A stretch of DNA of 64,000 nt, from the NCBI GenBank assembly GCA_026982655.1, contig JALSGO010000083.1, positions 30-64,029 of the forward strand, given 5' to 3'. The notes beneath the pieces were generated by a model. The model was not told the origin of the DNA. It made no database searches and saw only the letters and a list, made by a program, of their open reading frames with translations. Positions 35,924 through 56,407 of this stretch are shown piece by piece. This stretch comes from Candidatus Bipolaricaulota bacterium. Lineage in GTDB: Bacteria; Bipolaricaulota; Bipolaricaulia; RBG-16-55-9. The position numbers and the translations under genes were made by a program. The number at the start of each line of letters is the position of its first letter. Position 1 is the first letter of the stretch.

Positions 35924-36238
35924 ATGACCGAAGAACTACTGGTGTTGTTACAGCAGGGGAGCCTGGCGGCCCACCCGGAGGCGAAGCGCCACGCCCAGCG
36001 GCTCGTCCGCACCGTCATCGGCCACACCCAGGGCATCGAGCGGATGATCGAGGAAGAGCGATACTGCATCGACATCTTAAAGCAGATCGCCGCGGTGCAG
36101 GGGCTGCTGACCAAGCTGGCCCACACCGTAAGCGAAGCCCACATGAAACACTGCGTGCGACTGGCCATCGAGGAGGGCCACGGCGAGGAGGCCGTTGAAG
36201 AACTGATGGAGACGCTGAAATACCTGCGGAGCGTATAG
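35924..36238 (+). CDS. csoR: CsoR family Cu(I)-sensing transcriptional repressor
   Basis: ~104 aa; Cys (RYC) and H-x3-C (AHMKHC) with C-to-H spacing of 25 as in M. tuberculosis CsoR C36/H61/C65; no N-terminal His cluster (not RcnR). Confidence 0.8.
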   Translation: MTEELLVLLQQGSLAAHPEAKRHAQRLVRTVIGHTQGIERMIEEERYCIDILKQIAAVQGLLTKLAHTVSEAHMKHCVRLAIEEGHGEEAVEELMETLKYLRSV

Positions 36239-40098: not shown

Positions 40099-42771
40099 AT
40101 GGCCAAGGTCAAAGACCCCGTCTGCGGGATGGAGATCGACGAGGAAGAGGCCGTCGCCTCCCACGTCTACGAGGGGCAGACGTACTCCTTCTGCTCCAAG
40201 GACTGCGAGAAGGAGTTCGTCGAGAAGCCCGAGTTTTATGTCAAGCCGGAGCCCGCCCGCTCGGCGACCACGGGCGTGGACGTCGAGAGCACGGAGCCGG
40301 TGCACGCCGAGCTCCCCCTGGCGGGCTTGGACTGCACCAGCTGCGTGGTGACCGTCGAGCGCACCCTGCGGGAGGTCCCCGGCGTGGAGAGGGCCCACGT
40401 CAACTTCTCGCTGGGGATCGCGCACGTCACCTACGATCCCAAGGAGGCGAGCGTCGAGGACGCCGTCCAGGCGCTCAAGAAGGCGGGCTACGACGTGGGG
40501 GCCGCCGAGATGCGGGTGCGCATCGAGGGGCTTCGCTGCGCCTCCTGTGTGGGCTTCATCGAGGAGGCCCTGCGGAAGGTCCCCGGCGTCTTGGAGGCCA
40601 CGGTGAGCCCCGGAACGGAGACGGCGGTCATCCGCTACGTCCCCGGGATGGTGAGTTTTCCGGCGATCAAGGAAGCGATCGAATCTACGGGCTACAAAAC
40701 GGTCCACCGCCTGGAGGAGGAGGAGCCGCCCGATCAGGAGGCCGCCGCCCGCGAGCGGGAGTACCGCCTGCTCATGCGCCGCTTCCTCTTCGCCGCCGTC
40801 GTCTCCGTCCCGGTGCTCCTTACGGCCTATCCCGAGTTCGTGCCCTTCTTGAGGGATCTTCCCCGGAGCACGATCCGGCTCATCTGGGCCTTCGACGCGC
40901 TGCTGACGCTGCCCGTGTTGTTGTGGTCGGGTCAGCGCTTCTTCACGGGCGCTTGGGCGGCGTTCAAGCACCACAGCGCGGACATGAACACGCTGATCGC
41001 GCTGGGCACCGGCGCGGCGTGGGCCTATTCGACGGTCGCGATCGCCTTCCCTCAAGTGTTCCCCGAGGGGACGGCGGAGCCCTTCTTCGACGTGGCCGCC
41101 GTGGTCATCGCCTTGGTCGTGTTGGGCCAAGCGCTCGAGGTCCGGGCCAAGGGGCGCACCAGCGCGGCGATCAAAAAGCTTCTCGACTTACAAGCCAAGA
41201 CGGCCCGCGTGGTGCGCGACGGGCAGGAGATGGACATCCCCGTGGAAGAGGTGCTCGTGGGCGACGTGGTGGTGGTCCGCCCCGGCGAGAAGGTGCCTGT
41301 AGACGGCGTGGTGATCGAGGGCTCCTCCGCGGTGGACGAGTCGATGATCACCGGGGAGCCGATCCCCGTGGAAAAAAATCCCGGGGATGAGGTGATCGGC
41401 GGGACGATCAACAAGACGGGGTCCTTCAAGTTCCGGGCGACCAAGGTGGGCAAGGAGACGGCGCTGGCGCAGATCGTCCAGCTCGTACAACAAGCCCAAA
41501 GCACCAAGCCCCCGATCGCCCGGCTGGTGGATGTGGTGAGCGGCTACTTCGTGCCCGCGGTGATGATCATCGCGGTGCTGGCGTTCTTGGTATGGTTTAA
41601 TTTCGGGCCGGAGCCGCGGCTGACCTTCGCCCTGGTGACCGCGGTGACCACGCTGATCATCGCCTGCCCCTGCGCGCTGGGGCTGGCCACCCCCATGAGC
41701 ATCATGGTCGGGGTGGGCAAGGCCGCCGAACACGGGATTCTCATTCGCAACGGCGAGGCCCTCCAAAAGGCCTCGAAGCTGGACACGATCGTGCTCGACA
41801 AGACGGGCACGGTCACCAAGGGGAAGCCCGAGCTGACCGACGTGATCGCCGCTGAGGGCTTTACAGAAGACGAGGTGCTCCGCCTGGCGGCCAGCGCGGA
41901 GCGGGCCAGCGAACACCCCTTGGCCGAGGCGATCGTCCAGGGCGCCCAGGCGCGCGGACTGGAGCTTGCGGACCCCGAGACGTTCAACGCCGTCCCCGGC
42001 CACGGGATCGAAGCCACGCTCGACGGCAAGAGAGTGCTCCTGGGCAACGTAAAACTCATGAAGCGCGAGGGCATCGACGTCGGCGGCCTCCGCGAGGCGG
42101 CGGAGCGCCTCTCCGACGAGGGCAAGACCCCGATGTACATGGCCGTCGACGGCCAAGCCGCGGGGCTGATCGCCGTGGCCGACACGATCAAGGAAGACTC
42201 CGTCGCGGCCATTCGGACGCTCCAGGAGCTGGGGCTGGAGGTCGTCATGCTCACCGGGGACAACCGCCGCACCGCCGAGGCGATCGCCCGCCAGGTCCAC
42301 ATCGACCGGGTCCTGGCCGAAGTGCTCCCGGAGCAGAAGGCGGCAGAGGTGAAGAAGCTGCAGCTCGAGGGCCGCAGGGTCGGCATGGTCGGCGACGGGA
42401 TCAACGACGCGCCCGCCCTGGCCCAGGCCGACGTGGGCTTCGCCATCGGGACGGGGACGGACGTGGCCATTGAAGCTGCGGACATCACGCTCGTGGGCGG
42501 AAGCCTCCGCGGGGTGGTCACCGCCATCGAGATCTCCAAGGCCACCATGCGCAACATCAAGCAAAATCTCGTGGGAGCCTTCATCTACAACACGCTGGGC
42601 ATCCCGGTGGCCGCGGGGGTCTTCTATCCCCTCACGGGGATGCTGCTGAGCCCCCTCATCGCGGGGGCGGCGATGGCGTTTAGCAGCGTGACCGTGGTGA
42701 CGAACGCCAACCGCCTGCGGCGGTTCCGGCCCCGGATCGTCTCCGACTTCGAGGAAGGAGGTACGACATGA
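40099..42771 (+). CDS. copA: Copper-translocating P1B-type ATPase with N-terminal YHS/TRASH domain plus two HMA domains
   Basis: [11 protein letters not shown]...[12 protein letters not shown] (YHS/TRASH); two CxxC HMA domains; [16 protein letters not shown]. Confidence 0.9.
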
Positions 42772-43142
42772 TCGCGCAAATCGTGGTGAACGTCTTGGGG
42801 CTGCTCGCGATCGTCTGGATCGTCTGGTACTTCTGGATCTACGAGAAGAAGGGCGTCGTGGCCGCGGAGGCGGGCGGCGCTCAAGAAGTTCGCATTCGGG
42901 TCAAGGGGGGCTACGACCCCGACGTCATCGTCGTCCAGGCCGGAAAGCCCGTGAAACTCCACTTCTACCGCGAGGAGGAGGCGTCGTGCAGCGAGACGGT
43001 CGTCTTCCCGGACTTCGCCCAGTCGCTGAAGCTTCCGCCCTTTGAGACCGTCACCCTGGAGCTTCTGCCGGAGAAGCCGGGGGAGTACGAGTTCCACTGC
43101 CAGATGAACATGCTGCGGGGCAAGCTCATCGTGGAGGAGTGA
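42768..43142 (+). CDS. Cupredoxin-like domain small membrane protein fused downstream of copA ([10 protein letters not shown] motif)
   Basis: N-terminal TM helix, ~90 aa beta-sandwich region with Cys/His/Met cluster; paralog of 48785-49270; start overlaps copA stop (ATGA). Confidence 0.6.
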
Positions 43143-43190: not shown

Positions 43191-44582
43191 ATGGGCGTAG
43201 ACTTGACGTTCCTCGGCGCCGCCGGGACGGTCACGGGCTCCAAGTATTGGCTCTCGGCGGGCGGCAAAAACTATCTCATCGACTGCGGGCTCTTCCAGGG
43301 ACCGGACGAGCTGGAGCAGCTCAACTGGGAACAGCTTCCCATCGCCCCCGCGGAGCTGGACGCCGTGGTGCTGACCCACGGGCACCTCGACCACTCGGGG
43401 TACCTCCCGCGGCTTGCGAAGAGGGGCTACTCCGGGCCGGTCTACGCCTCGGAGGCCACCTGCGCGCTGCTCGAGCTGCTTTTGCCCGACTCGGGATACC
43501 TGCAGGAGGAGCACGCGGGCTACGCCAACCGCAAGGGCTACTCCCGCCACAAGCCCGCGCTTCCGCTGTACACCTACGACCAAGCGCTCGAGTCCCTAAA
43601 GCTCTTACGGCCCGTGAAGCTCGCGGAGCCCTTCGCCGTAGACAAACACCTCACGGTCACGATGCGCCCGGCGGGCCACATCCTGGGCTCCGCGATCGTA
43701 GAGTGCGAGCTTGATAATAAAAAGATCGTCTTCTCCGGGGACCTGGGCCGCTACGATCAGGAAGTGATGAAATCCCCAGCGACGGTGACGCGGGCCGACT
43801 ATCTGCTGGTCGAGTCGACGTACGGCGATCGGGAGCACGGCGAGGACCCCATCGAAGATCAGCTGGCCCCCGTGGTGAACGCCGCTGTCGAGCGCGGCGG
43901 GGCGCTTCTCATCCCGAGCTTCGCCGTGGGCCGCACCCAGCACGTCCTCTACTACCTGCGAAAGCTCCAAGACCAAAAGCGCATCCCCGAGGTGCCCATC
44001 TACGTGGACAGCCCGATGGCCATCGACGCGACGGCGATCTACTGCCGCTTCGGAGATGAGCTCAACCTCAACGTCAACCTGCTGATGGACGACGAAGCCT
44101 GCCCGCTGCGCTGCCGCGACACGCGCTTTACGCGGACGGTCCCCGAGTCGAAGCGGCTCAACGACGCGCCGGGGCCTCTTGTGATCCTCTCCGCGAGCGG
44201 GATGTGCACCGGCGGTCGGATCCTCCACCACCTGAAGCACCGCCTGCCCGACCCCAAGAACACCGTGCTCTTCGTGGGCTACCAGGCCCAAGGCACCCGG
44301 GGCCGCAGGCTCCTCGAGGGAGCCGACGAGATCAGAATTCACGGGATGACCGTCCCGGTGCGGGCGGAGATCGCCCAGATCGACGGCCTCTCCGCCCACG
44401 GAGACGCCCGGGAGCTGATGCGCTGGCTCTCCGGGTTCGAGCGGCCTCCCGAACAGACGTTCCTCGTCCACGGGGAGCCGCACGCCTCCCAAGCGCTGGA
44501 GGAGCGCATTCGGAAGGAGCTGGGCTGGGCGACCCACCGGCCCCGCTACGGCGAGACCGTCTCCTTGGAGGGCAGGGGATGA
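43191..44582 (+). CDS. MBL-fold beta-CASP family RNA-metabolising hydrolase
   Basis: THGHLDHSG metallo-beta-lactamase motif, beta-CASP motifs (D..H..H) and C-terminal RNA-specificity region. Confidence 0.75.
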   Translation: MGVDLTFLGAAGTVTGSKYWLSAGGKNYLIDCGLFQGPDELEQLNWEQLPIAPAELDAVVLTHGHLDHSGYLPRLAKRGYSGPVYASEATCALLELLLPDSGYLQEEHAGYANRKGYSRHKPALPLYTYDQALESLKLLRPVKLAEPFAVDKHLTVTMRPAGHILGSAIVECELDNKKIVFSGDLGRYDQEVMKSPATVTRADYLLVESTYGDREHGEDPIEDQLAPVVNAAVERGGALLIPSFAVGRTQHVLYYLRKLQDQKRIPEVPIYVDSPMAIDATAIYCRFGDELNLNVNLLMDDEACPLRCRDTRFTRTVPESKRLNDAPGPLVILSASGMCTGGRILHHLKHRLPDPKNTVLFVGYQAQGTRGRRLLEGADEIRIHGMTVPVRAEIAQIDGLSAHGDARELMRWLSGFERPPEQTFLVHGEPHASQALEERIRKELGWATHRPRYGETVSLEGRG

Positions 44583-45304
44583 TCCGCTACGCGCTCTTCG
44601 ACTTGGACGACACGCTCTATCCCCCGGCGGCGGGGCTCATGGAGGCCCTCAGCCGCCGCTTTACGCAGTGCATCGCCGAGGAGCTGGGCATCTCCCTCGA
44701 ACAAGCCGAGGCCCTGCGGCGCGAGTACGGCAAGCGCTACGGCTCGACCACGCGGGGGCTCGCCCTGCATCACCACGTGGACATCGGGGGATTTTTGGCC
44801 AAGGTCCACGACCTGCCCATCGAGGAGTATCTGCAGCCCGACCCCGAGCTGGGGTGTTTGTTGGACTGCATCGACGCGCAGAGGTGCATCTTCACCAACG
44901 CGCCGGAGGCCTACGCCCGGCGGGTGTTAGACGTCCTGGGCGTCGCGGATCGCTTCTGTCGGGTCTTCGCGGTCGAGTTCTCGGGTTATAGGGGCAAGCC
45001 CGACCCCCTCGTCTACGAGCGGGTGGTCGCCGAGCTGGGCGCTTCCGACCCGGAGATCGTGATGCTCGACGACGTGCGGGCCAACCTCCTCCCCGCCGCG
45101 CAGAGGGGCTGGACGACCGTCTGGGTCAACGGGCGGGGGAAGCCCGCCGACCCTCAAGACCTCGACGGGATCTCCTATGCGGTGGGCGACCTCTGGGAGG
45201 TGGCCCGCGTCTTCCGCGAGATCGGGCTCCTCGACGAGGCCCACCACGAGGAGTGGAACCGCTGCCTCCTCCGGTGCCCGCTGGGCCGGAGACGGGCTGG
45301 GTGA
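44579..45304 (+). CDS. HAD superfamily hydrolase (pyrimidine 5'-nucleotidase/SDT1-like)
   Basis: FDLDDTLY motif I, FTNAP motif II, later K and DD motifs. Confidence 0.7.
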   Translation: MIRYALFDLDDTLYPPAAGLMEALSRRFTQCIAEELGISLEQAEALRREYGKRYGSTTRGLALHHHVDIGGFLAKVHDLPIEEYLQPDPELGCLLDCIDAQRCIFTNAPEAYARRVLDVLGVADRFCRVFAVEFSGYRGKPDPLVYERVVAELGASDPEIVMLDDVRANLLPAAQRGWTTVWVNGRGKPADPQDLDGISYAVGDLWEVARVFREIGLLDEAHHEEWNRCLLRCPLGRRRAG

Positions 45305-45347
45305 CCTTGCTGGACGTCTTCCGGGGGGAACATGACGCAGATCATTG

Positions 45348-45371
45348 ATCCCACCCCACGGGGGGTGGGAT
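45348..45371 (+). promoter_or_regulatory. CsoR-type operator, perfect inverted repeat ATCCCACCCC-ACGG-GGGGTGGGAT lying between -35 TTGATC and -10 GATAAT
   Basis: Read directly; 18-bp spacer promoter fully occupied by the palindrome; downstream gene is cytochrome b. Confidence 0.65.
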
Positions 45372-45405
45372 AATGGCGGGCGAAAGGCGGGCGAAGGAGG
45401 GACGC

Positions 45406-46491
45406 ATGGAAGCACAGAAGACGGTCATGCAAAGCCGACGGCGACGCCTCTGGGAGGCGCTCGACGAGCGCCTGGGGTTGAGCGCCCTGAGGTACCCCGT
45501 CCCCGCCCACGCCAACACGCTGGGATATATGTTAGGCGGGATCACCCTCTTTGGCTTCCTCATCTTGATCGCCACAGGCATTTATCTTACGCAGTTCTAC
45601 AACCCCGACCCCAGCCAAGCCCACGACAGCGTCGTCTACCTCGTCGAGCAGACGACGTTCGGGGACCTCGTCCGCAGCATCCACTACTGGACGGCCAACT
45701 TGGTGGTCGTCACCGTTCTCCTCCACCTTCTACGGATCTTCTTTGCGGGGGCGTACAAGCGGCCCCGGGAGGCCAACTGGCTGGTCGGCTTGGCGCTTTT
45801 GGCGATCACCATCGGCTTCGTCTTCACCGGCACGGTCCTCAAGTGGGACCAAGAGGCCTACGAGGCGATGCTCCACAACATGGCCTTCTCGGAGCTTCTG
45901 GGCGGGATCGGGAGCTGGTTCTCCCCAAGTTTTACCCTGAGCGTGCCGATGCTCACCCGCCTCTACGCCGTCCACATCGCGGTGCTCCCGGCGCTCTTCC
46001 TCATCTTGATCGCGATTCATCTGATGCTGGTCAAGTACCACGGGATCTCGCCGCTGCCCACCCTGAACGCTCGGGCGGGCACCTGGGGCAAGGAAGGGAC
46101 GGGCCGCTTCTCCGCGCACCTGCGGCGCATGGTGGGCTACGGGCTATGGCTGCTGGCCTTAGCGGGGGTGCTGGCGCTCCTCTGGCCCGCGCCGCTGGGC
46201 TATCCCCCGGTTCCGGGCGCCGAGGTGACGAAGCCCCCGTGGTTGTTCCTGTGGCTCTACGCCTTCGAGAACTGGGTGGGGACCGCCGGGCTGCTCTGGC
46301 CACCGCTTGTGCTCTTCCTGCTGCTGGCGTTGGTGCCCTTCCTCGACCGCAGCCCCTATCTGGCACCCCGAAAGCGACCCGTAACCGTCACGCTCGGCGT
46401 GGTGCTGTTGCTCTTTTTGGTCGGGTTGAGCGTGTACGTGGCCCTCACCCCGCCGGTGAGCCACATCCAAGGGCAAGGGATGGGAGGTTGA
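45406..46491 (+). CDS. Cytochrome b (bc/b6f-complex type; N- and C-terminal domains fused)
   Basis: Helix B/D bis-His pairs (HYWTANLVVVTVLLH; LHNMAF...VHIAVLP), 8 TM helices; GAAGGAGG RBS before ATG 45406 (ORF opens at 45373 inside the promoter). Confidence 0.75.
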   Translation: MEAQKTVMQSRRRRLWEALDERLGLSALRYPVPAHANTLGYMLGGITLFGFLILIATGIYLTQFYNPDPSQAHDSVVYLVEQTTFGDLVRSIHYWTANLVVVTVLLHLLRIFFAGAYKRPREANWLVGLALLAITIGFVFTGTVLKWDQEAYEAMLHNMAFSELLGGIGSWFSPSFTLSVPMLTRLYAVHIAVLPALFLILIAIHLMLVKYHGISPLPTLNARAGTWGKEGTGRFSAHLRRMVGYGLWLLALAGVLALLWPAPLGYPPVPGAEVTKPPWLFLWLYAFENWVGTAGLLWPPLVLFLLLALVPFLDRSPYLAPRKRPVTVTLGVVLLLFLVGLSVYVALTPPVSHIQGQGMGG

Positions 46492-46495
46492 GACC

Positions 46496-47077
46496 ATGCG
46501 ACCACAGAGCAGTTGGGTTCACGTCGGTTGGATCACAGCGTTGCTGACGGTGGCGGTGGGGATCGGGCTTGCGGTGGGGCTTCCGGGACGGGCCCACGAG
46601 GGCGCGGAGGTGAGCGCCTATCCTACCACCGTGGCCCCGGGGGAGACGCTCTTCGTGGAGGGCGCGGACATCAACCCTAACGGCCCGATCGCCCTCTTCT
46701 TGGAGGGCGTAAAGGGCAAGTTCCGCCTGGGTCAGGTCCGGGGGGACGAGGACGGCGGGTTCAAGACGAGCGTGGCCCTCCCGCCGGATCTCCCGCCGGG
46801 GACCTATTTGTTGGTGGCCGTCGGGGCCAACGGGGAGAAGGCCACCTTCTCGGTGACGGTGGCCGCCGCGGTAAGCTCCCTCACCCAAGAGCCCAGGGAG
46901 CCCACGGACGCGCTCATGGAGCTGGACCGGTCAAGGTCCTCCGAGGAGTGGGCGTTCCTCGCCGTCGTGATCGGGCTGAGCCTGCTCCTGGGGGCGTGGC
47001 TGGCCCGCCCGGAACGGATGGTTGCACCTGCCTCTCCTTCTGCCTCCGCCGCCGAGCCCGACGGGAGCGGGCCTTGA
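46496..47077 (+). CDS. Hypothetical periplasmic Ig-like protein with predicted mature N-terminal His and C-terminal TM anchor (possible CopC-like Cu-binding protein)
   Basis: Signal peptide ...GLPGRA|HEGAEV; beta-rich core; C-terminal helix WAFLAVVIGLSLLLGAWLA. Confidence 0.4.
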   Translation: MRPQSSWVHVGWITALLTVAVGIGLAVGLPGRAHEGAEVSAYPTTVAPGETLFVEGADINPNGPIALFLEGVKGKFRLGQVRGDEDGGFKTSVALPPDLPPGTYLLVAVGANGEKATFSVTVAAAVSSLTQEPREPTDALMELDRSRSSEEWAFLAVVIGLSLLLGAWLARPERMVAPASPSASAAEPDGSGP

Positions 47078-47103
47078 GCGCAAAGGGGGCCGAGAGGAAG
47101 GAG

Positions 47104-48309
47104 ATGAGCCGACGGGGGTACGAAGGAGTTTCGGTCGTGGGGGCCGGACCGGCGGGGCTTGTGGCGGCCCTCACGCTGGCCCGCGCAGGCGTCCCCGTCA
47201 CCGTCTACGAGAAGGGGCCGACGGTGGGCACCCGCTTCCACGGCGACTTTCAAGGCTTAGAGAACTGGTCCCGCGAGCTCGACGTCTTGGAGGATCTCCG
47301 GACGATGGGGCTTGCGATCAACTTCGCCGTGCAACCGCGCGACTCAGCGGACTTCTACGACGCCTGGGACCGGAAGTACGACATCAGGACCCGAGAGCCC
47401 CTCTTCTATCTGGTGCGCCGCGGGGGTGGGGAGGGGAGCCTCGACCGCGGGCTCTACGCCCAGGCCCGGGAGGCCGGGGTGCGGTTCCGTTTCCACACCA
47501 AGCTCGATCGGGTGGAGGGCCCGGCGATCGTGGCCACCGGCCCGCGCTACGCCGACGGCATCTGCGTGGGCTACCTCTTCGAGACGGACCTAGAAGACCT
47601 TACGGCCTGCATCCTCTCCCAGCGCCTGGCCCCCCGCGGCTACAGCTACCTCCTGGTGGCCGACGGTCGGGCGACGCTGGTGAGCTGCCACTTCGCCGAC
47701 CTCCCCCGCTGGCGGGATCATCTGGAGGCCACCGTCGAGGCCTTCCGAAAGCTTTACCGCTTTGAGATGCGGAACCCCCGCTTCTTCTCCGGCTACGGGA
47801 ACCTCTTCGCCCGGGGGCGCTTCCGCGACGGCCAAAAACTCTACGTGGGCGAGGCCGCCGGGCTCCAGGACGGCCTGTGGGGCTTCGGGATGCGCTTTGC
47901 CCTGCGCTCGGGATATCTGGCGGCCCAGAGCCTGCTCTCCGGCCAAGACTACGACGAGCTGGTCCGAAGGGAGCTTCTGCCGCACCACCGGGCGGGGCTG
48001 GTCAACCGCTTTTTCTGGAACCTCTTGAGCGATCGCATGTTGGCGTTCTTCCTGCGGCGGGCGGCGCGCTGGACCGACCTTCGGGGGCGGCTGCGCGAGC
48101 TCGCCGGGCCCCGTCCCTGGAAGGATCGGCTCTATCCCTTCATCCGGGGAGCCTGCGGCTGGCGGGCCCGCTACCGCGACGAGCGCTGCCTCCGGGAGGG
48201 GTGTCCCTGCATCGGGTGCGCGTGTCGGAGTCCTTCGCGTACGATCTCGAGCCCCTGCGTCTCTTGGGGAGCGGCTCGGTTCCGACTCGACATGACGCAA
48301 GTCATTTGA
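47104..48309 (+). CDS. FAD-dependent oxidoreductase (geranylgeranyl reductase-like) with Cys-rich C-terminal tail
   Basis: VSVVGAGPAGLVAALTLARAG dinucleotide-binding motif; tail ERCLREGCPCIGCACRS. Confidence 0.65.
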   Translation: MSRRGYEGVSVVGAGPAGLVAALTLARAGVPVTVYEKGPTVGTRFHGDFQGLENWSRELDVLEDLRTMGLAINFAVQPRDSADFYDAWDRKYDIRTREPLFYLVRRGGGEGSLDRGLYAQAREAGVRFRFHTKLDRVEGPAIVATGPRYADGICVGYLFETDLEDLTACILSQRLAPRGYSYLLVADGRATLVSCHFADLPRWRDHLEATVEAFRKLYRFEMRNPRFFSGYGNLFARGRFRDGQKLYVGEAAGLQDGLWGFGMRFALRSGYLAAQSLLSGQDYDELVRRELLPHHRAGLVNRFFWNLLSDRMLAFFLRRAARWTDLRGRLRELAGPRPWKDRLYPFIRGACGWRARYRDERCLREGCPCIGCACRSPSRTISSPCVSWGAARFRLDMTQVI

Positions 48310-48331
48310 CCCACCCCCTCTGGGGTGGAAT
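48309..48331 (+). promoter_or_regulatory. CsoR-type operator (imperfect): ACCCACCCC-CTCT-GGGGTGGAAT between -35 TTGACC and -10 AATAAT (17-bp spacing)
   Basis: Read directly; paralogous to the 45331-45375 module (CATGACGCA..TCATT..CCCACCCC..GGGGTGG.ATAAT). Confidence 0.55.
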
Positions 48332-48342
48332 AATAGAGTGAA

Positions 48343-48669
48343 ATGTCTGCAGAAGCGCGGCGCGGGATCGACAGCAGGTTCCGGGATCTCCTGTCCCTGT
48401 TGCTCATCGGGGTGTTGATCCTGCCGATGGCCGGCCCCTCCGGCCCCTTCACGGAGTCAGGGGCGTGTTCGGGGAACCCGCTTGAGGCGGGATGCGCTGC
48501 GATTCTGCATGTCGCCCGAGGCACGGCCGGTCATTGCCTGCCTTGTGGTGCCGTTGTCCTCCTGAGCTCTCCTCTGCCCTTTGCCTGGGCACTCGTAGGG
48601 GATTGGACTTCCGCCGGACTTGGCAGCCCGTTGGATCCGTCCTTTGTGCCCTGGCGTCCCCCTGCCTGA
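48343..48669 (+). CDS. Small Cys/His-rich membrane protein, probably leaderless (ATG 8 nt after the -10)
   Basis: TM helix LLSLLLIGVLILPMAG then GACSGN...GCAA...HCLPCG cysteine cluster; no SD. Confidence 0.4.
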   Translation: MSAEARRGIDSRFRDLLSLLLIGVLILPMAGPSGPFTESGACSGNPLEAGCAAILHVARGTAGHCLPCGAVVLLSSPLPFAWALVGDWTSAGLGSPLDPSFVPWRPPA

Positions 48670-48784
48670 CCTCCGCTTCGTTCTTTTGCCCGTGCCCGCG
48701 GTCCTTTGAACGGGCCTTCGTCGGCCTAAGGGATCGTACGTATCTCAACTCCATCTGCAATCTGCACAAGGAGCAGGAGGTCGA

Positions 48785-49270
48785 GTGCCAATGCCTAAGA
48801 AGACGAACAAGGATCGGAAGGTCAAGCAGCAGCGTCTACTCCGGCAGGGGGCGGCCGGGGGCTGGCGGCCCTGGGCCTTTGGGGCCGTCACCCTCGGGGT
48901 GCTAACAGCCGCGTTTGGGCTGCTCTTGCCGAAGTTCTTCGCCGACGGTCCCGCAGCGGACGGGGAGGCCAACGTCATCCTGGTCGAAGCGGACATGGCC
49001 GGGCTCTATCCCAAGGAGATCCGGGTCAAGGCCGGGGAGCCCGTGACCATCCGCCTGCGCAGCTTGGACAACCGGTTCCACCTGGACGGGGGAGGCAAGC
49101 ACCAGTTCGCCATCGACGAGCTGGGGGTCAACATCATCGCTCCGCCGCTCGGCACGGCCGAGGCCACCTTCATCCCTACGGAACCGGGTGAATACGAGTT
49201 CTACTGCGACATCTGCTGCGGCGGGCGGGCCAACCCGACCATGGTAGGGAGGCTGATCGTCGAGCTATGA
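48785..49270 (+). CDS. Cupredoxin-like domain protein (EYEFYCDICCGG motif), membrane-anchored
   Basis: Paralog of 42768-43142 (shared PGEYEF-xC motif and beta-sandwich core); GGAGCAGGAGG RBS. Confidence 0.6.
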   Translation: MPMPKKTNKDRKVKQQRLLRQGAAGGWRPWAFGAVTLGVLTAAFGLLLPKFFADGPAADGEANVILVEADMAGLYPKEIRVKAGEPVTIRLRSLDNRFHLDGGGKHQFAIDELGVNIIAPPLGTAEATFIPTEPGEYEFYCDICCGGRANPTMVGRLIVEL

Positions 49271-50109
49271 GCGCTCTGACCCAGATCTCCGCGCGCAAGG
49301 TGGTGCTGGCCTCGGCGATCGCCCTGGGGGTGATCGCCGCCGCGGTCTTCTTGGGGCTGCGGCACCCCTCCGCCCAGGCCGTCCCGATGAGCCCGCTCCT
49401 CCCGGCGGTGACGCTGGGGACCATCGTGGTGGCCGGGATCGTCGACGGGATCAACCCCTGTGCCTTCACGGTGCTCCTACTGTTCGTTACTGCCCTGCTC
49501 GCGAGCCTGCAAACCCGCAGCGACGTCGGGATCGCCGAGAACGTGGGGGCCACGCGCGCCCGGATCGTGGGGCTCGGCTCCATCTACATCGCAGCCATCT
49601 TCCTCACCTACCTGGCGCTGGGGGCGGGGCTCTTGGTGACGGCAGATCTCTTCGTGCGGGAGCACCTGCCCGCCCGGATCGGGGCGCTGCTCGCCATCTT
49701 CCTCGGGCTGTGGATGCTCAAGGACTACTTCCTGCCCGGGTGGGGCTGGCGGCTGGGGGCCCCCAAGGTCGTGGGGGAGTGGGCCCGGCGCGCGGCCCGG
49801 AAGATGACCGTCCCGGCGCTGGCGCTCGGGGGCTTTCTCATCGGGCTCTGCACCGTGCCCTGCAGCGGGGCGGTCTACCTGGCGGTGCTGGCGCTCCTCT
49901 CGACCCAGCCGACCGCGACGGCCTTCGGGTACCTGGTGCTCTACAACCTGATGTTCATCCTCCCGTTGGTCGGGGTGCTGGCCGTGGCCGCGTCGCGCCC
50001 GGCGCTGAACCGCTTGGCCCGCTGGAACCTCCACCACCGGGAGGGGGTCCGGCTGGCCTTGGGGTCGGGTGTCGTGCTCATGGGGCTGTTCATCCTGTAC
50101 ACCGTCTAG
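49267..50109 (+). CDS. Cytochrome c biogenesis CcdA/DsbD-family thiol-disulfide transmembrane protein
   Basis: Two TM-embedded Cys (DGINPCAF; CTVPCSGAV) in 6-8 TM helices. Confidence 0.7.
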   Translation: MSALTQISARKVVLASAIALGVIAAAVFLGLRHPSAQAVPMSPLLPAVTLGTIVVAGIVDGINPCAFTVLLLFVTALLASLQTRSDVGIAENVGATRARIVGLGSIYIAAIFLTYLALGAGLLVTADLFVREHLPARIGALLAIFLGLWMLKDYFLPGWGWRLGAPKVVGEWARRAARKMTVPALALGGFLIGLCTVPCSGAVYLAVLALLSTQPTATAFGYLVLYNLMFILPLVGVLAVAASRPALNRLARWNLHHREGVRLALGSGVVLMGLFILYTV

Positions 50110-50159
50110 CTGGGAAACGGAGAACGGATCGAGAACCCAGGAGAAAGGAGGAAGCGGCG

Positions 50160-50480
50160 GTGAACAACCATCATGCGGGAGGCGGCAAGCCCTGCCACGT
50201 CGAGCGGCTGGAGAAAGAGGTGGACATGGAGGCGCTGCGCTCCACCCGGGTCAGCATCCTGGCGGTGACGGGGATGGGGTGTCCCAACTGTGCCCTGCGG
50301 GTGCACAACGCGCTCCTCGCCCTCCCCGGCGTCCATCGGGTGGACGTGGAGCTGGAGGCCGAGCGGGCGATCGTCTACTGGGACCCGACCGCCCTGCAGC
50401 CGGAGAGGCTGATCGAGGCGGTCTCCCAGGCTGCGGCGGGGACCCCTCACGACTACCGGGCGTACTTCGTGAAGCCGTAG
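50160..50480 (+). CDS. Heavy-metal-associated (HMA) domain protein, CopZ-like (GMGCPNC)
   Basis: MxCxxC motif in beta-alpha-beta-beta-alpha-beta context; AGGAGAAAGGAGG RBS before GTG 50160. Confidence 0.65.
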   Translation: MNNHHAGGGKPCHVERLEKEVDMEALRSTRVSILAVTGMGCPNCALRVHNALLALPGVHRVDVELEAERAIVYWDPTALQPERLIEAVSQAAAGTPHDYRAYFVKP

Positions 50481-50642
50481 CGGAGCCACAGACGCAGAGC
50501 GGGGCTGCCCGGGGCCCGAGTCACCGTCGTCGCATCGGCTTCCACCTCCGCCCCGGGCAGCTCCCCGCCCTGCCCGCCGACGGCAGGGAGCTCCCACACA
50601 CGGGGAGAGAAGGAGAAAGGGAAGACACAAGGAGGGATTTCC

Positions 50643-51173
50643 ATGGACCTTAGGCTCATCGCCGTTGCGATCGTCTCCTTGGCGCTGGGGTTCCTCTTGG
50701 CCTCCGGCCTGCGCCCGGAGGTCGGGGTGGGGCCTTCGGAGGCGGAGCGGATCTTGGAGCGGCTGCGGCGCGAGATCATCCCGGAGGAGGGCAGCCCCAC
50801 GGGCTACGGGATCGCCTTCAGCGAGGCGGGCTACCAGACCCTGGTGGCCAAGAACCGCACACTCAGCGTCCCGCCCGAGCGGGCGGACGACTTCGAGGGC
50901 CTGGACATGAGCCTGCCCTGCTGTCCCTTCCAGAGCCCGAGCGTCGACGAGGCGAAGAACTGCCCGTGCGAGCACCATCAGGCGCTCTACGGGCTGGCCA
51001 AGTGGCTCCTCCAAGAAGACTATCCCGCAGACCGGGTCCAGGAGGAGGTGGCGCGCTGGAGCCGCTACCTCTTCCCCAAGGAGGCGCTGCGGGCGGAGAT
51101 GGAGCGGCGGGCGAAGCTCGATCCCGCCGTCGAAGCCGCCCTGGAGGAGCTCAAGGCCAAGGGGAAGTGCTAG
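50643..51173 (+). CDS. Membrane-anchored Cys-rich hypothetical protein (LPCCPF...NCPCEHH motifs)
   Basis: N-terminal TM helix; two CC/CxC clusters plus HH; AAGGAGGGA RBS. Confidence 0.5.
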   Translation: MDLRLIAVAIVSLALGFLLASGLRPEVGVGPSEAERILERLRREIIPEEGSPTGYGIAFSEAGYQTLVAKNRTLSVPPERADDFEGLDMSLPCCPFQSPSVDEAKNCPCEHHQALYGLAKWLLQEDYPADRVQEEVARWSRYLFPKEALRAEMERRAKLDPAVEAALEELKAKGKC

Positions 51174-51227
51174 GCCGATTGGAACAGGGACGACCCGACG
51201 AGATCGAGGACGAGGAGGCGAGCGACG

Positions 51228-52541
51228 ATGATGGCATCCACAGCCGAACCGGCGGAAACGGAACCCCGACGGGGCGGGGGCCTGGGGAAGAGCCTTCGGG
51301 AGCGCTGGGCGCTCTGGACCCTGGGGCTGTTCGCCCTGCTGATCGTAGGGCTCTTCTTCTTCTACCGCCCGCCCATGGAGGAGAGCATCACGGGGGACAC
51401 CTTCCACCCCATCCGCGGGCTGATCGGCTTCCCCCACGGCCCGGGGGCCGCCGCGGAACCCTACGACGAGGAGGCCCTCGACCGCTTCGTGGAGGAGACG
51501 ATCGCGGAGACCTACGCCAAGGCGCGCATCGATCAGATCAAGCTCCTCCTCATGGGGCTCCTCATCGGCTTGATCCCGCTGGGCTATTACCGCGGTCGGT
51601 CGGACCGCCTAAAGCGCCTGGGACAGCGGGTCAACAAGATCTGGGACCCCTACACCTTCGGCACCGTCTCGGGGCTCCTTTTGGTGGGGGTGATCATCCC
51701 TACGGGGACGGTCCTCGGCCTCTTCTACAGCGCCGACGCGGAGAAGCTCTACGAGAGCATGGCGGGCATCGTGGGGAACCCCATCCTGAGTTTCCTGCGC
51801 AACCTCCACCTCTGGGCCTCGGAGGCGTTCTTGCTCTTCCTGTTCCTGCACACGGCCCGGATCGTCTCCACGCGGGCCTACTTTGCGGGACGCAAGCTCG
51901 TCTGGGTTCTGGGTGTCGTGCTGCTTGTGATCAGCTGGGCGACCTTCCTGATCGGCACCTTCATCCGGGGGGACCAGGAAGCGTTTGAGGCCTGGGTCCA
52001 CATGATGGCCCTCATCCGCTTCATCCCCCTCGTCGGGGACCCGATCGCCGACTTCTTCTCCGGCCCCTTCGCCGTCATGCGGCTGTACGTCTTCCACATC
52101 GTGATCACCACCATCGCCTTGCTGCTGATTCTGGCACCCCACGTGCTGATGCAGAAGGTGTACGTCCACGTGCAGCGGCGCTGGAGGGCGGCCCTTCGCT
52201 ACACCCTGGGGCTTACGGCCCTGATCGCGGTCCTCAGCCTGCTGGTGCCCGCCCCCTTCCTGGCGGAGCCCTACCACGACCTGGAGATCACCAAGCCACC
52301 GTGGCCCTATTACTTCCTGTACGCCTGGGAGAACATCGGCGGCGCGGTGAGCATGATCTGGTCGCCGCTGCTCATCCTGGTGCCGCTGCTTCTGCTGCCG
52401 TACGCGCTGGAGCAGCTGCCACTCGCCCGCCGGACCGCCCAACGGGTGGGCGACTGGGTCTTCTACGGCGGGGTCCTGATCACCTTAGGGCTGAGCTACT
52501 GGGTGGCCGCCTCGGGAATTGTGGCCCACGTCTTCGAATGA
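51228..52541 (+). CDS. Cytochrome b (bc-complex type), second paralog
   Basis: Bis-His helix motifs (NLHLWASEAFLLFLFLH; WVHMMALIRF...FHIVITT), 8-10 TM helices. Confidence 0.7.
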   Translation: MMASTAEPAETEPRRGGGLGKSLRERWALWTLGLFALLIVGLFFFYRPPMEESITGDTFHPIRGLIGFPHGPGAAAEPYDEEALDRFVEETIAETYAKARIDQIKLLLMGLLIGLIPLGYYRGRSDRLKRLGQRVNKIWDPYTFGTVSGLLLVGVIIPTGTVLGLFYSADAEKLYESMAGIVGNPILSFLRNLHLWASEAFLLFLFLHTARIVSTRAYFAGRKLVWVLGVVLLVISWATFLIGTFIRGDQEAFEAWVHMMALIRFIPLVGDPIADFFSGPFAVMRLYVFHIVITTIALLLILAPHVLMQKVYVHVQRRWRAALRYTLGLTALIAVLSLLVPAPFLAEPYHDLEITKPPWPYYFLYAWENIGGAVSMIWSPLLILVPLLLLPYALEQLPLARRTAQRVGDWVFYGGVLITLGLSYWVAASGIVAHVFE

Positions 52542-52590
52542 GGAGGGCCGGACTTGACAACCCTCCCCGGATGGGGTACAGTGAGACCAT

Positions 52591-52613
52591 ATCCCACCCC
52601 AGGTGGGGTGGAT
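52591..52613 (+). promoter_or_regulatory. CsoR-type operator (imperfect): ATCCCACCCC-AGGT-GGGGTGGAT immediately before GATAAG and the MMPL gene start
   Basis: Read directly; TTGACA at 52554-52559 upstream. Confidence 0.5.
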
Positions 52614-52618
52614 AAGGG

Positions 52619-55573
52619 GTGAAGCGAATGGCCCGAGGGCCGGACTTCCTGATACGTTGGCGCGTGCCGCTGCTGGTCGCCGTCCTGGTGGCCACCGCGC
52701 TCTTGGGCGCGGCGGTCATGGGAGCCAAGCTCAACGCCGACTTCTCCACGTATCTTTCCCAAGACAGCCCGCTCGTCCGGGAGTTCAACCGCGTCGGCGA
52801 GGTCTTCAAGGCCAACTACGTCGGCATGGTCCTCGTCCGGACCGAGGATCTGTTCACCCCCGAGAACCTCAGGCTGCTGGATCGCCTGACCCGAGCGTAT
52901 AAGTCCATCGAGGGCGTCGACTCGGTGACCAGCCTCACCAACGCCGTCGACTTCCGGCGGGCCGACGGCGGCCTGGTTGTGGGAAAACTCCTCGAGGGCA
53001 AGCCCCTCCCGACGGCGCCCGAGGAGCTGGAGAGGTTCAAGCGCTACGTGCTCTCCAAGGAGATGTACGTCGGCGCGTTGGTCAACGCCAAGGGCACCAC
53101 CGCCGTGATCCTGGTGCGCCTGCTTCCCAAGGTGAATCACTTCAAGGTCGCCGGGCAGATCGACCAAGTCACCCAGGAGATCGCGCCCAATGCAGAAAAC
53201 ATCTACTACGGCGGGATGCCCTTCCTCATCTACTCCATGACCGGGCTCATCCTCGACAACCTCTTCTTCCTGGTGCCGCTGATCATCCTGTTGCTCGTGG
53301 GGGTGCTGGAGCTGGGTTTCCGCCGCCTGGGCGGGGTGCTCGCCCCCCTGACCGTGGTGCTGCTCGCCGTGGTCTGGACGATGGGGATCCTGGCGCTCCT
53401 GGGCCGCCCGATCGACCTTCTGACCGGGATCGTCCCCATCATCCTCATCGCGATGGGCTCGGCGGACGGGATCCACTTCATGCGGCGCTTCTACGAGGCG
53501 CGGGCCGCCGGAGCCGAGCGCCGCGAGGCCGTGAAAATCACAATGAGGGAGATGGGCACGCCGATCGTCTTTACGTCCATCACGACCATGATCGGGTTCG
53601 CCTCGCTGGCCATCTCGAACTTCGACATCATCCGGACGTTCGGCTGGGCCACCGCGCTGGGGATCTTCCTGGCGCTGGTCGTCACCCTGATCGTGCTCCC
53701 CGCCGGACTGTCCTTTGGCCGGGAGCGGGCCTCCGTGCCTGCCGAGACGGACAACAGCGGGAGGCCGCGCAGCGTCCGGGGAGGGAGCCGGGCGATGGCC
53801 GCCCTGGGCGGGGGGATCCACCGGCGTCCGGGCGCGATCGCGCTCCTGACGGTGGGGGTGATCGCGCTGGCCGCGGTGGGGATCCCCCGCATCGTGGTGA
53901 ACGTGGACTGGTCGCTCTGTCTGGCACGGGGCAGCAAGCCGTACTTGGCGGAGATGCTGCTGCGCCGGGAGTTCGGCGGCTCCCTGCCCCTGCTCGTGTC
54001 CGTGAAGGGCGACGTCAAGGACCCGGCGACGCTGGAGACGATGCGGGCCGTGGAGCGCCACCTCGACGCGCTGCCCGAGGTGAGCGAGGCCGAGTCGATA
54101 GCGTCGGTGCTGGCGGAGATGAACTGGACGCTCAACGGGCGCTTCGCCGTGCCCACCGAGCGGGCTCAAGTCAACAACTTGTGGTTCCTGCTCCAGGGAC
54201 AAGACGTGCTCGATCAGATGGTCCGCTCGGACAACCAAGAGGCGCTGGTGCAGGCGAAGGTGGCCTCGCTGGGCACGGCGGTGATCAGCCGGGTGGTCGA
54301 GGACGTGAACGCCTTCTTGAGCCGCCTGCCCCAGAAGTTGGTCGTCGTGGACGCCGCCCAAGCGCCCCCGGATGCTCAACAGGCGCTGAGGGAACTCCAA
54401 GCTCAGCAAGTGAAAGAGGCTCTGGCTCAAGACCTGCGGGCCAAAGGCCTTTCGGTTGAACCCGCGGCGCTCGAAGCTGTTGTTGAGGCAGCGCAGAGCT
54501 GGACCCCCGGCGAACCCGACTACGCGGCGCTCGGCGAAGCCATTGAGAAATATTTGCTGAGCCCCGAGTCCGAGGTGCCGTTCGACGACCCTGCACAGGC
54601 CGCGACGATAGCCGAGTCGATCACCACAGCGCTCAGCGAGCGAGGCGGACGGCCATTGAGTGTCTCTGAGTTAGAAGCGTTGCTGCGCCCCCAGGTCGAG
54701 ACGTCCTACCCCGAGGACGTGGCCTGGCTGGCAGAGGCGTTAGTTTATCGCGTCGATGAGTTTTTAGATGCCCGTCGCGTGGAGGCGGCTTACGCGCAGC
54801 TGGCCGCCCAGCTGCCCCCGGAGGCGCGCTCCAACACGGATCTTGCGAAGAAGCTGCGCGGCGACCTTTGGGGGCTGACGACTGCGACGCTGGCGCTCGG
54901 TCCCCAGCAGTACGAGTCCCTGCAGGCCCAATATGGTCTGGACCTCGCGCGGACGGTGACCCTGGCCGCCGAGCCCTCGGGCCTAGCCCCGGTGCTGGAT
55001 CAGATGGAGAAGGAGCTGCTCCCCACCCAGATCGAGAGCACGGCGCTGGCCTTGTTGGCCGTGACGCTCTTGCTGATTTTGGTGTTCCGCTCGCTGCGGG
55101 CGGGGCTTTTGGGGATCGTCCCCGTGGGCCTGACCATTCTGGTCAATTTCGCAGTGTTAGGCTACTTCGGCATCGGCCTGGACTCGTTCACCGCGATGAT
55201 CGCCAGCATCACCATCGGCCTGGGGATCGACTACGCGATCCACTTCACCCACCGCTTCCGGAAGGAGTTCGAGCGCTCCGGCGACGAGCGGACGGCCCTC
55301 ATCACCACGTTGCAGACGACGGGCGTGGCGATCCTCATCAATTCGTTTTCGGTGGGCGCGGGGTTCGCCGTGCTGCTCTTGGCCGGCGGCCAGCACATCC
55401 GGCTCTTGGGAGGCCTTACGGCAATAGCGCTCCTGGTGAGCGCGCTCTTCACCCTGGTCGTGCTCCCGGCGCTCACGCTCTTGTGGAAGCCGCGCTACTT
55501 TCAGACCCCCGTCGTCGTGGAGCCGAAGCTGCGCCCTGAGCCCGAAGCCGAGAGGGGAGTTCAAAGCGCGTGA
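52619..55573 (+). CDS. RND superfamily transporter, MMPL family (984 aa, large periplasmic domains)
   Basis: Duplicated 6-TM bundles, MMPL motifs (GSADGIHFMRRF; GLGIDYAIHFTHRF); real start may be ATG 52628 (leaderless). Confidence 0.8.
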   Translation: MKRMARGPDFLIRWRVPLLVAVLVATALLGAAVMGAKLNADFSTYLSQDSPLVREFNRVGEVFKANYVGMVLVRTEDLFTPENLRLLDRLTRAYKSIEGVDSVTSLTNAVDFRRADGGLVVGKLLEGKPLPTAPEELERFKRYVLSKEMYVGALVNAKGTTAVILVRLLPKVNHFKVAGQIDQVTQEIAPNAENIYYGGMPFLIYSMTGLILDNLFFLVPLIILLLVGVLELGFRRLGGVLAPLTVVLLAVVWTMGILALLGRPIDLLTGIVPIILIAMGSADGIHFMRRFYEARAAGAERREAVKITMREMGTPIVFTSITTMIGFASLAISNFDIIRTFGWATALGIFLALVVTLIVLPAGLSFGRERASVPAETDNSGRPRSVRGGSRAMAALGGGIHRRPGAIALLTVGVIALAAVGIPRIVVNVDWSLCLARGSKPYLAEMLLRREFGGSLPLLVSVKGDVKDPATLETMRAVERHLDALPEVSEAESIASVLAEMNWTLNGRFAVPTERAQVNNLWFLLQGQDVLDQMVRSDNQEALVQAKVASLGTAVISRVVEDVNAFLSRLPQKLVVVDAAQAPPDAQQALRELQAQQVKEALAQDLRAKGLSVEPAALEAVVEAAQSWTPGEPDYAALGEAIEKYLLSPESEVPFDDPAQAATIAESITTALSERGGRPLSVSELEALLRPQVETSYPEDVAWLAEALVYRVDEFLDARRVEAAYAQLAAQLPPEARSNTDLAKKLRGDLWGLTTATLALGPQQYESLQAQYGLDLARTVTLAAEPSGLAPVLDQMEKELLPTQIESTALALLAVTLLLILVFRSLRAGLLGIVPVGLTILVNFAVLGYFGIGLDSFTAMIASITIGLGIDYAIHFTHRFRKEFERSGDERTALITTLQTTGVAILINSFSVGAGFAVLLLAGGQHIRLLGGLTAIALLVSALFTLVVLPALTLLWKPRYFQTPVVVEPKLRPEPEAERGVQSA

Positions 55574-55624: not shown

Positions 55625-56407
55625 ATGAAGCGTAGTGGAAGTAGAACGAGAACGGTGATCCTCGGACTGACGGTGACGTTGCTCCTGGCGGTCGGCGCTT
55701 GGGCGATCACGGGCGACGAGGTGCTGCAGAGGTCTCAAGAGGCGATGCGGCCCGGCCAGGACGCGACGATCACGGAACGGATGACGATCGCCAAGCCCGA
55801 CGGCCAGACGGACGTGCTGGAGCTCAAGATGTACATGAAGGGGGAGAAGACGCTGATCCGCGTCCTCGCCCCGGAGGACTTCGCGGGCATTGGGCTGTTG
55901 ATCCTGCCCCAGGAGGACGGCGGCGAGGAGATCTGGCTCTATCTTCCGGCCTTCCGGGACGTGAAGCAGATCGTGGCCGAATCCTTGAGCGAGGGCTTCG
56001 TCGGCTCGGACTTCGCCTACGAAGATCTCACGGTGCGCTACACCTCCAAGTGGGACGTGACCTCCATGAGCGAGGAGGAAGGGCAATACGTCCTGACGCT
56101 GGCTCCCAAGCCCGAGGCCCAGCTCAGTTACAGCGGGGCGCGCATGTGGGTGGACCAGGAGACGTTCCTGCCCACGCGGGCGGAGTTCGACCGGGAGGGA
56201 GAGCTGCTCAAGGTGCTGACCCTCTCGGAAGTGCAGGACTTCCCCAGCGTCGCGGACCCCGAGACGAGCTACCCCACCCCGACGCGGATCGAGATGGCCA
56301 ACGTGAAGACGGGGAGCCGGACCCTCATCGAGCTTTTGGAGGTCGAGTACGACACCGGGCTCTCGGACGACTTCTTCACCGTACGCAACCTCAAGCGGGG
56401 CGAATAA
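55625..56407 (+). CDS. LolA-like outer-membrane lipoprotein-sorting family protein (MMPL-associated)
   Basis: Signal peptide, LolA-like half-barrel signature (IWLYLPAFRDVKQI...GSDFAYEDL); paralog of 60626-61486. Confidence 0.65.
   Translation: MKRSGSRTRTVILGLTVTLLLAVGAWAITGDEVLQRSQEAMRPGQDATITERMTIAKPDGQTDVLELKMYMKGEKTLIRVLAPEDFAGIGLLILPQEDGGEEIWLYLPAFRDVKQIVAESLSEGFVGSDFAYEDLTVRYTSKWDVTSMSEEEGQYVLTLAPKPEAQLSYSGARMWVDQETFLPTRAEFDREGELLKVLTLSEVQDFPSVADPETSYPTPTRIEMANVKTGSRTLIELLEVEYDTGLSDDFFTVRNLKRGE

Follow-up and report, generated by a model that had tools for sequence, protein, structure and literature searches.

We analysed a 64,000-nucleotide (nt) stretch of contig JALSGO010000083.1 from a Candidatus Bipolaricaulota bacterium (the window), and in particular a module at 48291-48334, here called module C, together with the small open reading frame (ORF) that begins just 3' of it. 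The reading we favor, with somewhat better than even confidence, combines a CsoR-controlled promoter, a second upstream dyad (P1), a near-leaderless small ORF and translation of a downstream cupredoxin gene that is coupled to this ORF. The regulator is of a known type and has new accessory parts. Judged from its sequence, module C is very probably an internal sigma-70-type promoter of a copper island, under CsoR control, and the frame at 48343-48669 almost certainly encodes a real small protein. The small-protein family, P1 and a helix that runs from the stop codon to the next Shine-Dalgarno sequence are new and narrow in distribution, and their functions are predicted.

Operators, promoter and the P1 dyad

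The features concerned are the following.

48306-48311, + strand: -35 hexamer TTGACC from the promoter scan, holding the flavoprotein stop codon TGA (48307-48309)
48329-48334, + strand: -10 hexamer AATAAT with an upstream TG, from the promoter scan
48310-48329, no strand assigned: CsoR-type operator C, CCCACCCC-CTCT-GGGGTGGA, filling the spacer and overlapping both the -35 and the -10
48292-48305, + strand: dyad P1 of module C, ATGACGCAAGTCAT (ATGAY-N4-RTCAT), abutting the -35
45332-45374, + strand: module B, with P1 ATGACGCAGATCAT, -35 TTGATC, CsoR operator CCCACCCCACGGGGGGTGGG (45350-45369) and -10 GATAAT
32481-32500, no strand assigned: CsoR operator A, 3' of the promoter TTGACA-17-TATCGT (32440-32468) and ahead of Rieske-CopA-CsoR-MMPL
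52593-52612, no strand assigned: CsoR operator D, 3' of the promoter TTGACA-17-TACAGT (52554-52582) and ahead of an MMPL-type transporter gene (52629-55573)
35924-36238, + strand: CsoR repressor gene, 104 amino acids (aa); PF02583, E=6e-24; Cys47, His73 and Cys77

At the core of the module lies a perfect inverted repeat, CCCACCCC-N4-GGGGTGG(G/A), and sites of the form CACCCC-N4-GGGGTG occur four times in the window, against 0.54 expected (32481-32500, 45350-45369, 48310-48329 and 52593-52612). A preliminary description of this DNA had correctly picked out the two modules; it did not recognize the operator as a canonical CsoR box and missed the core sites at 32481-32500 and 52593-52612. The operator arms are identical to those of the experimentally used Mycobacterium tuberculosis CsoR operator, 5'-GTAGCCCACCCCCAGTGGGGTGGGATAC-3', one that overlaps both the -10 and the -35 of the cso promoter (PMC10601412), and of the Thermus thermophilus CsoR site CCCCACCCCACCTGGGGTGGGG (PMC10318464). 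The window sites match these experimentally defined ones as G/C-rich pseudo-palindromes with runs of at least four G or C. A cognate repressor gene is present in the same genome, about 12 kb upstream of module C and adjoining a CopA-type ATPase gene. Its product carries YC47ID and H73-x3-C77, the Cys-His-Cys ligand pattern for Cu(I), and its closest solved relatives are the CsoR structures 3AAI, 4M1P and 2HH7 (E about 1e-18).

All four operators stand at the 5' ends of gene clusters, three of them intergenic and the fourth, C, overlapping the last flavoprotein codons, and consensus promoters are present at every one. Two architectures can be told apart: at A and D the operator comes after a TTGACA-17-TAnnnT promoter, and at B and C the operator lies within the spacer. 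The operators overlap or directly follow these promoters, and CopA, HMA, cupredoxin and MMPL genes lie downstream; operator B precedes a set encoding cytochrome b, a 193-aa product and the flavoprotein, and operator C precedes the small ORF-cupredoxin-CcdA-HMA set. By its sequence, the operator part is a known device in a new host. From its identity to proven operators, we infer that CsoR without copper would occupy the interval between -35 and -10 and block RNA polymerase, and that with Cu(I) it would leave, so that the small ORF-cupredoxin-CcdA-(HMA) operon would be transcribed. The same logic is proposed, from sequence identity, for the other three operators of the window. The operator hairpin was also considered as a terminator and rejected, as no U-run follows it.

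Modules B and C had been described as diverged copies of one promoter/operator module, and this was borne out. Both quoted strings were located, at 45331-45374 and 48291-48334; the end given earlier for module C, 48336, is 2 nt too long for a quoted string of 44 nt. They are identical at 36 of 46 nt (about 78%, ungapped, counted by eye), and a degenerate 27-nt pattern from the 5' part of the module matches only these two places in the 64-kb window, with none expected (100 shuffles). The promoter scan recovered in module C the elements proposed before, TTGACC, a 17-nt spacer and AATAAT, with a TG upstream that makes an extended -10 (score 10 of 12), and in module B TTGATC-18-GATAAT (45345-45374, score 9 of 12). 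Three matches to the promoter consensus were found in the 8.4-kb region, against 0.5 expected, with module C scoring highest. The flavoprotein stop codon does lie inside the -35, as reported for what was then called a FAD-oxidoreductase gene. This overlap is lineage-specific: at the orthologous locus L098 the flavoprotein ends 8 nt before the module, which sits at the equivalent position outside coding sequence and maintains its -35 and -10 hexamers. The overlap of stop codon and -35 is incidental.

A separate observation is that the flavoprotein itself (47137-48309) carries a Cys-rich tail at its C-terminus, CGWRARYRDERCLREGCPCIGCAC (48150-48309 in the window; 165-300 on the reverse strand of L098). 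In the window the protein is extended by about 10 codons through P1 into the -35, and its L098 counterpart stops 8 nt before the dyad.

Comparative synteny supports the earlier claim that a whole module was duplicated. In L086 and L006 a single dyad-plus-CsoR module stands upstream of cytochrome b and serves the whole operon from cytochrome b through the small ORF and cupredoxin to CcdA, whereas the window and L098 additionally carry a flavoprotein gene, and in both a second module immediately precedes the small ORF. This arrangement supports a duplication of the module when the operon was split. Few of the unconstrained positions are common to modules B and C, namely a 5' AC and three of the four dyad-spacer bases.

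Several points weigh against a working promoter at module C. No terminator-like site was found between 46491 and 48343, that is, between the flavoprotein gene and module C, so read-through from module B could supply small-ORF mRNA. The window, L098 and L104 share a conserved GAG at -7 to -5 relative to the ATG, and it could serve as a weak Shine-Dalgarno sequence on such read-through transcripts. Promoter, repression and leaderless status, moreover, all rest on consensus and analogy. Module C might then be no functional promoter at all and act as a CsoR roadblock, or be a decaying duplicate, inside a long operon from module B, with the small ORF translated from a polycistronic mRNA by way of the weak GAG or by re-initiation after the flavoprotein stop 33 nt upstream; in L086 the small ORF is expressed within a long operon that has a single module. 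We consider this unlikely. The -35 and extended -10 of module C score best in 8.4 kb and are maintained in L098, where the module is intergenic; a pure roadblock needs neither the TTGACC/TGnAATAAT frame nor the P1 dyad; and L104, L087 and L089 have P1-containing promoters directly before the small ORF.

In its upstream half the module has a 14-nt element, ATGACGCA(A/G)(G/A)TCAT, which forms the dyad ATGAY-N4-RTCAT and ends at the first base of the -35. The module is therefore a promoter/operator, as described earlier, but not a single indivisible unit, since the dyad and the CsoR box are two separable elements. If transcription starts 7 nt past the -10, P1 is centered at about -42.5, the position of a class II activator. 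In 1.08 Mb of related loci, the composite TGAY-N4-RTCAT-TGA is present at seven independent promoters (window B, window C, L006, L086, L089, L098 and L104), against about one expected, and an eighth dyad, in L087, lacks the adjoining TGA. At L104, L087 and L089, P1 and a promoter stand ahead of the small-ORF homologue without a CsoR box, and in L098 the dyad is conserved though it lies outside coding sequence. Because it occurs without the CsoR box and is conserved outside coding sequence, P1 is, on sequence grounds, a functional unit in its own right, and since its conservation is independent of the CsoR box, it is probably the site of a second dimeric regulator. Weighing against such a site, the P1 arms are degenerate and do not covary, with C/A at the inner position in four of the eight instances; covariation of the arms (ATGAT/ATCAT versus ATGAC/GTCAT) had been considered and was rejected on these mixed instances. 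No CRP/FNR or two-component regulator gene was found in the window as a candidate for P1.

FNR/CRP-type boxes have a 5-4-5 geometry, TTGAT-N4-ATCAA. P1 shares with FNR-type class II sites this geometry, the TGA core and a center near -42, and differs from TTGAT-N4-ATCAA in the outermost base. The E. coli CusR box, AAAATGACAAnnTTGTCATTTT, is the inverted repeat ATGACAA-NN-TTGTCAT, in which ATGAC and GTCAT stand 6 nt apart (PMC11195947). Its half-sites are those of P1, but P1 has a spacing of 4 nt in all eight instances, which sets it apart from CusR/CopR copper boxes. We treat the likeness to CusR and FNR boxes as a lead, a resemblance only and not evidence of membership.

Two further observations concern possible P1 regulators and sites. 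In L087 (1-2027), a copper/DOMON/cytochrome b cluster begins with a histidine kinase and an OmpR-family response regulator, which are a candidate source of a P1 regulator; nothing in the window is comparable to this pair. On the reverse strand of L060, an Anaerolineae contig with a CcdA homologue, TGACATATGTCATTGATC at about 7557 contains a perfect TGAC-N4-GTCA dyad abutting TTGATC, which may be chance or may reflect a wider distribution of P1.

A small four-cysteine protein and its start

The small ORF and the genes that follow it are arranged as follows.

48343-48669, + strand: small ORF, 108 aa, with a signal- or anchor-like N-terminus, C42, C51, C65-x-x-C68-G and a C-terminal WRPPA directly before the stop codon
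48791-49270, + strand: Cupredoxin_1-domain protein, first gene 3' of the small ORF
49267-50109, + strand: CcdA-like thiol-disulfide membrane protein, 280 aa, its gene overlapping the cupredoxin stop codon
50160-50480, + strand: HMA-domain (CopZ-like) metallochaperone gene, next on the same strand

Relatives of the small ORF were found through the neighboring CcdA gene and by a metagenome DNA pattern scan, in which a pattern joining WRPPA codons to CxxCG codons returned 16 loci, five of them true members. Homologues, about ten in all, were found at L006 (4077-4370), L086 (7092-7424, called as a 110-aa gene), L087 (7081-7404), L089 (1495-1821), L093, L098, L104 and L092, plus P0122-P0126. They are confined to one uncultured lineage, whose closest named genomes are Candidatus Fraserbacteria metagenome-assembled genomes. 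The preliminary description had let its case for the ORF hang on conservation, and the ORF is kept in eight or more loci. At 23-35% amino-acid identity to the window protein, the homologues align with the same stop position, four invariant Cys (C...GC...CxxCG), an invariant C-terminal W(R/H)PPA and a hydrophobic N-terminal segment, and the C-terminus is the most conserved part. Unsaturated pairs give a ratio of nonsynonymous to synonymous substitution rates (dN/dS) of 0.42-0.48, and synonymous changes are seen in the WRPPA codons of the homologues. A profile built from the locus-derived homologues found only five clusters among 5.8 billion proteins, with called genes of 97-110 aa.

The Cys cluster was previously described as being of unknown family, and no relative was found in Pfam, NCBIfam or PDB. 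Pfam-A and NCBIfam gave no credible family (best single-member matches E=0.0069 in Pfam and 0.19-0.2 in NCBIfam, from one of five members each), and the best PDB profile matches, to zinc-ribbon proteins, were not significant (E 0.26). An Rfam scan of 44500-53000 found no family. A word-indexed single-sequence search of 5.8 billion proteins returned no match to the small ORF, and the sole phmmer match in an exhaustive search of 1.84 billion cluster representatives, P0121, is a Cys-free repeat protein and was rejected as compositional. AlphaFold, run on a six-sequence alignment, gave a mean predicted local distance difference test (pLDDT) score of 55, with only the N-terminal helix credible (residues 11-30, pLDDT 83-90); the helix is predicted to span residues 3-26, leaving about 75 residues to W(R/H)PPA. 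Weighing against a protein-coding gene are the lack of a predicted fold beyond this helix, the fall in third-position GC content (GC3) from 0.9 to about 0.55 after codon 35, and the fact that gene callers skipped the ORF in same-strain contigs, leaving a gap of about 480 bp.

The order small ORF, cupredoxin, CcdA is kept in six loci. From this context and the CxxC motif, the small protein may be exported or membrane-anchored and may act with the cupredoxin-like protein and the CcdA reductant transporter in handling copper or thiols. Two more specific identities were rejected: no member has a lipobox before its first Cys, as a lipoprotein would, and the motif is CxxCG, not the CxxCH of a haem c site.

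The ATG at 48343 lies 8 nt after the -10, which ends at 48334, and has no Shine-Dalgarno sequence before it, in agreement with the preliminary description. An in-frame TAG two codons upstream means that no earlier start is possible. Most other window genes with reliable starts have GGAGG-type sequences; the cytochrome b gene downstream of module B (45406-46491), for instance, has AAGGAGG in a leader of 25 nt. Transcription from the predicted promoter would be expected to start at 48340-48343, 0-3 nt before the ATG. With an AUG start and no Shine-Dalgarno sequence, the chances that the small ORF is translated in this genome from a leaderless or near-leaderless mRNA seem to us evenly balanced. 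Among the relatives, the ATG follows the -10 by 18 nt in L098 and by 13 nt in L104, both without a Shine-Dalgarno sequence; L087 and L089 have ordinary leaders of 25-30 nt with AAGGAG; and L006, L093 and L086 have GGGAG upstream of the start, with the small ORF inside a longer operon. Leaderless expression is thus plausibly a property of this promoter arrangement rather than of the family. As a separate observation, the small ORF of L006 (4013-4050) and of L093 (reverse strand, about 1160-1195) has an internal promoter-like site to itself, TGGACA-17/18-TAAAAT or TAGAAT, with neither dyad nor CsoR box and with GGGAG in the leader.

A helix from the stop codon to the cupredoxin ribosome-binding site

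Two segments flank the gap between the small ORF and the cupredoxin gene.

48667-48679, + strand: stop codon and anti-Shine-Dalgarno-like segment UGACCUCCGCUUC, predicted to pair with 48770-48783
48770-48783, + strand: cupredoxin ribosome-binding region GGAGCAGGAGGUCG, with the core GGAGG at 48776-48780; 3' strand of the long-range helix

The helix between them closes the intergenic region in both the minimum-energy and the centroid fold. When the sequence from stop to start was folded, the core of the Shine-Dalgarno sequence paired with the 24 nt following the stop at a probability of about 1.0 in six of eight loci. The window is among the six, and so is L089, despite a different downstream gene. 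In 21 other gaps of the window, taken as a control, the median was about 0.02 and the maximum 0.75. Duplex energies range from -21.6 to -24.6 kcal/mol and beat composition shuffles in four loci (p<=0.012). Extensions of the helix differ between lineages and are still complementary (GCUUC:GGAGC, CUCAUCC:GGAUGAG and CCCUACUC:GAGUAGGG).

A ribosome finishing the small ORF would melt this helix and so expose the cupredoxin ribosome-binding site about 100 nt downstream. Translational coupling of cupredoxin to the small ORF is the simplest reading of the helix, and given the folding and its recurrence in relatives we put it forward tentatively, a little short of an even call. Some results speak against it. 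The helix is shifted in L086, where it is formed by CCCUACUC:GAGUAGGG, and weak in L087; five of the 21 control gaps reach 0.45-0.75; the whole region has a fold z-score of only -1.28; and strict column-wise covariation of the helix is absent among the loci compared.

The same helix could serve an arrest peptide. The small ORF might act mainly in cis, as a monitoring substrate like SecM, MifM or VemP, with W(R/H)PPA and the stop codon slowing or arresting the ribosome and the downstream site unmasked until export, membrane insertion or copper/thiol chemistry frees the chain. A published search for monitoring substrates used four criteria, one of them that a small ORF without known function should immediately precede secA, secDF or yidC (PMC10987492). 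The small ORF shows three of the four features (a signal or transmembrane segment at the N-terminus, conservation at the C-terminus and over 30 aa in between), and its RPP resembles the arrest motifs RAPP, RGPP and HAPP (PMC10987492). Its C-terminus is its most conserved part, and the predicted Shine-Dalgarno-sequestering helix begins at its stop codon. The downstream genes, however, encode cupredoxin and CcdA rather than Sec or YidC proteins, and its motif, R-P-P-A, departs from R-x-P-P. A working protein is favored by the four invariant Cys and by a dN/dS of about 0.45 over its body, and unmasking that depends on termination accounts for the helix without arrest. We regard a mainly cis-acting arrest peptide as rather improbable. 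The bolder proposal, that W(R/H)PPA proteins are a new class of exported regulatory nascent peptide gating cupredoxin/CcdA translation on top of control by CsoR and a P1 regulator, is a long shot, marginally more so still. In this proposal a ribosome paused at the invariant Pro-Pro-Ala-stop would keep the helix open, and translation of periplasmic copper-handling proteins would depend on how far the Cys-bearing nascent chain has been exported or on its chemical state. Were ribosomes to stall at the motif, this would tie nascent-chain sensing to metal homeostasis, and arrest-peptide monitoring substrates would extend beyond the Sec/YidC machinery.

That 48343-48669 is instead non-coding, a structured 5' leader of the cupredoxin gene with a chance frame in GC-rich DNA, would suit its absence from the gene calls of same-strain contigs, the weak GC3 of its 3' two-thirds and single-sequence searches (5.8 billion proteins; 1.84 billion representatives) that found nothing credible, but it is already contradicted by conservation, namely a frame open to the same stop in eight or more loci at 23-35% identity, invariant Cys and W(R/H)PPA, dN/dS below 0.5 with synonymous changes in motif codons, recovery of called 97-110-aa genes by the profile and no matching Rfam family, and we give it almost no credence. 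We return, then, to a CsoR-controlled promoter with P1, driving a small protein to which cupredoxin translation may be coupled.

The copper island and known systems

Around the module lie further genes of the copper island. Two paralogous CopA-type P-type ATPase genes (33191-35848 and 40099-42771) are 6971 nt apart and have 73-83% DNA identity over long stretches. Both products have two HMA domains; the second also has an N-terminal YHS domain, and an overlapping cupredoxin gene follows it (42768-43142). No CsoR box was found ahead of this second gene (40099-42771). Three genes encode MMPL/RND-like transporters (36246-38663, 52629-55573 and 58189-60585), two of them followed by LolA-like (PF17131) genes (55625-56407 and 60626-61486) and two behind CsoR operators; it is uncommon for a CsoR regulon to have such transporters as its output. 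Two divergent cytochrome b genes (45406-46491 and 51228-52541; 30-33% identical) and a Rieske gene (32531-33181) also fall within the island, two of this set directly behind CsoR boxes, which suggests a copper-regulated alternative quinol-oxidizing complex. Elsewhere in the window, a short (GCAA)n-type tandem repeat, agcaaggagcaagcaagcaagcaagcaaacaagcaaggag, occupies 28904-28943, just upstream of the SBP_bac_5 start (about 28952) called in the same-strain contig L001; the long ORF of the window that contains the SBP_bac_5 gene (28388-30565) reads through this repeat.

These results provide a concrete multi-operator CsoR regulon in a lineage without cultured members or genetics, where copper control is predicted to extend to MMPL-type exporters and to the respiratory genes for cytochrome b and the Rieske protein. 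They also turn an "intergenic gap" of about 480 bp left by annotation pipelines into a gene, and with it a family of probably exported four-Cys mini-proteins that gene callers missed and that is found with cupredoxin and CcdA.

Leaderless mRNAs occur in Actinobacteria, Deinococcus-Thermus and archaea, and leaderless initiation requires AUG. The small ORF resembles these cases in having its -10 only 8 nt before the AUG and no Shine-Dalgarno sequence. It differs in that strong Shine-Dalgarno sequences are the rule in the remainder of this genome region, in that its start site is predicted, and in that the L087 and L089 homologues have ordinary leaders.

Coupling by unmasking of a sequestered ribosome-binding site is known from rpmI-rplT and MS2 coat-replicase. 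The secM-secA pair is another system of coupling and unmasking (PMC10987492). As in these three, a segment traversed or covered by the upstream ribosome is here the predicted pairing partner of the downstream Shine-Dalgarno sequence, and the upstream ORF is likewise small and has an export signal. Unlike in those systems, this partner directly follows the stop codon, with about 100 nt separating it from the Shine-Dalgarno sequence, and the helix closes the whole intergenic region; the genes controlled encode copper and thiol proteins, and coupling here is predicted only.

The closest parallels are the CsoR promoters of M. tuberculosis cso and T. thermophilus copZ-csoR-copA, with which the window shares the operator CCCACCCC-N4-GGGGTGGG. 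As at M. tuberculosis cso, sites B and C overlap both the -35 and the -10, and as in known CsoR systems a repressor with Cys-His-Cys Cu(I) ligands is encoded beside a CopA-type ATPase. Unlike those systems, the window has four operators within 20 kb, in two architectures, and adds to the known targets copZ and copA the genes for cytochrome b, a Rieske protein, MMPL-type transporters and the cupredoxin-CcdA pair. Sites B and C bear an extra upstream dyad that known CsoR promoters do not, and the host lineage, a relative of Candidatus Fraserbacteria, is uncultured.

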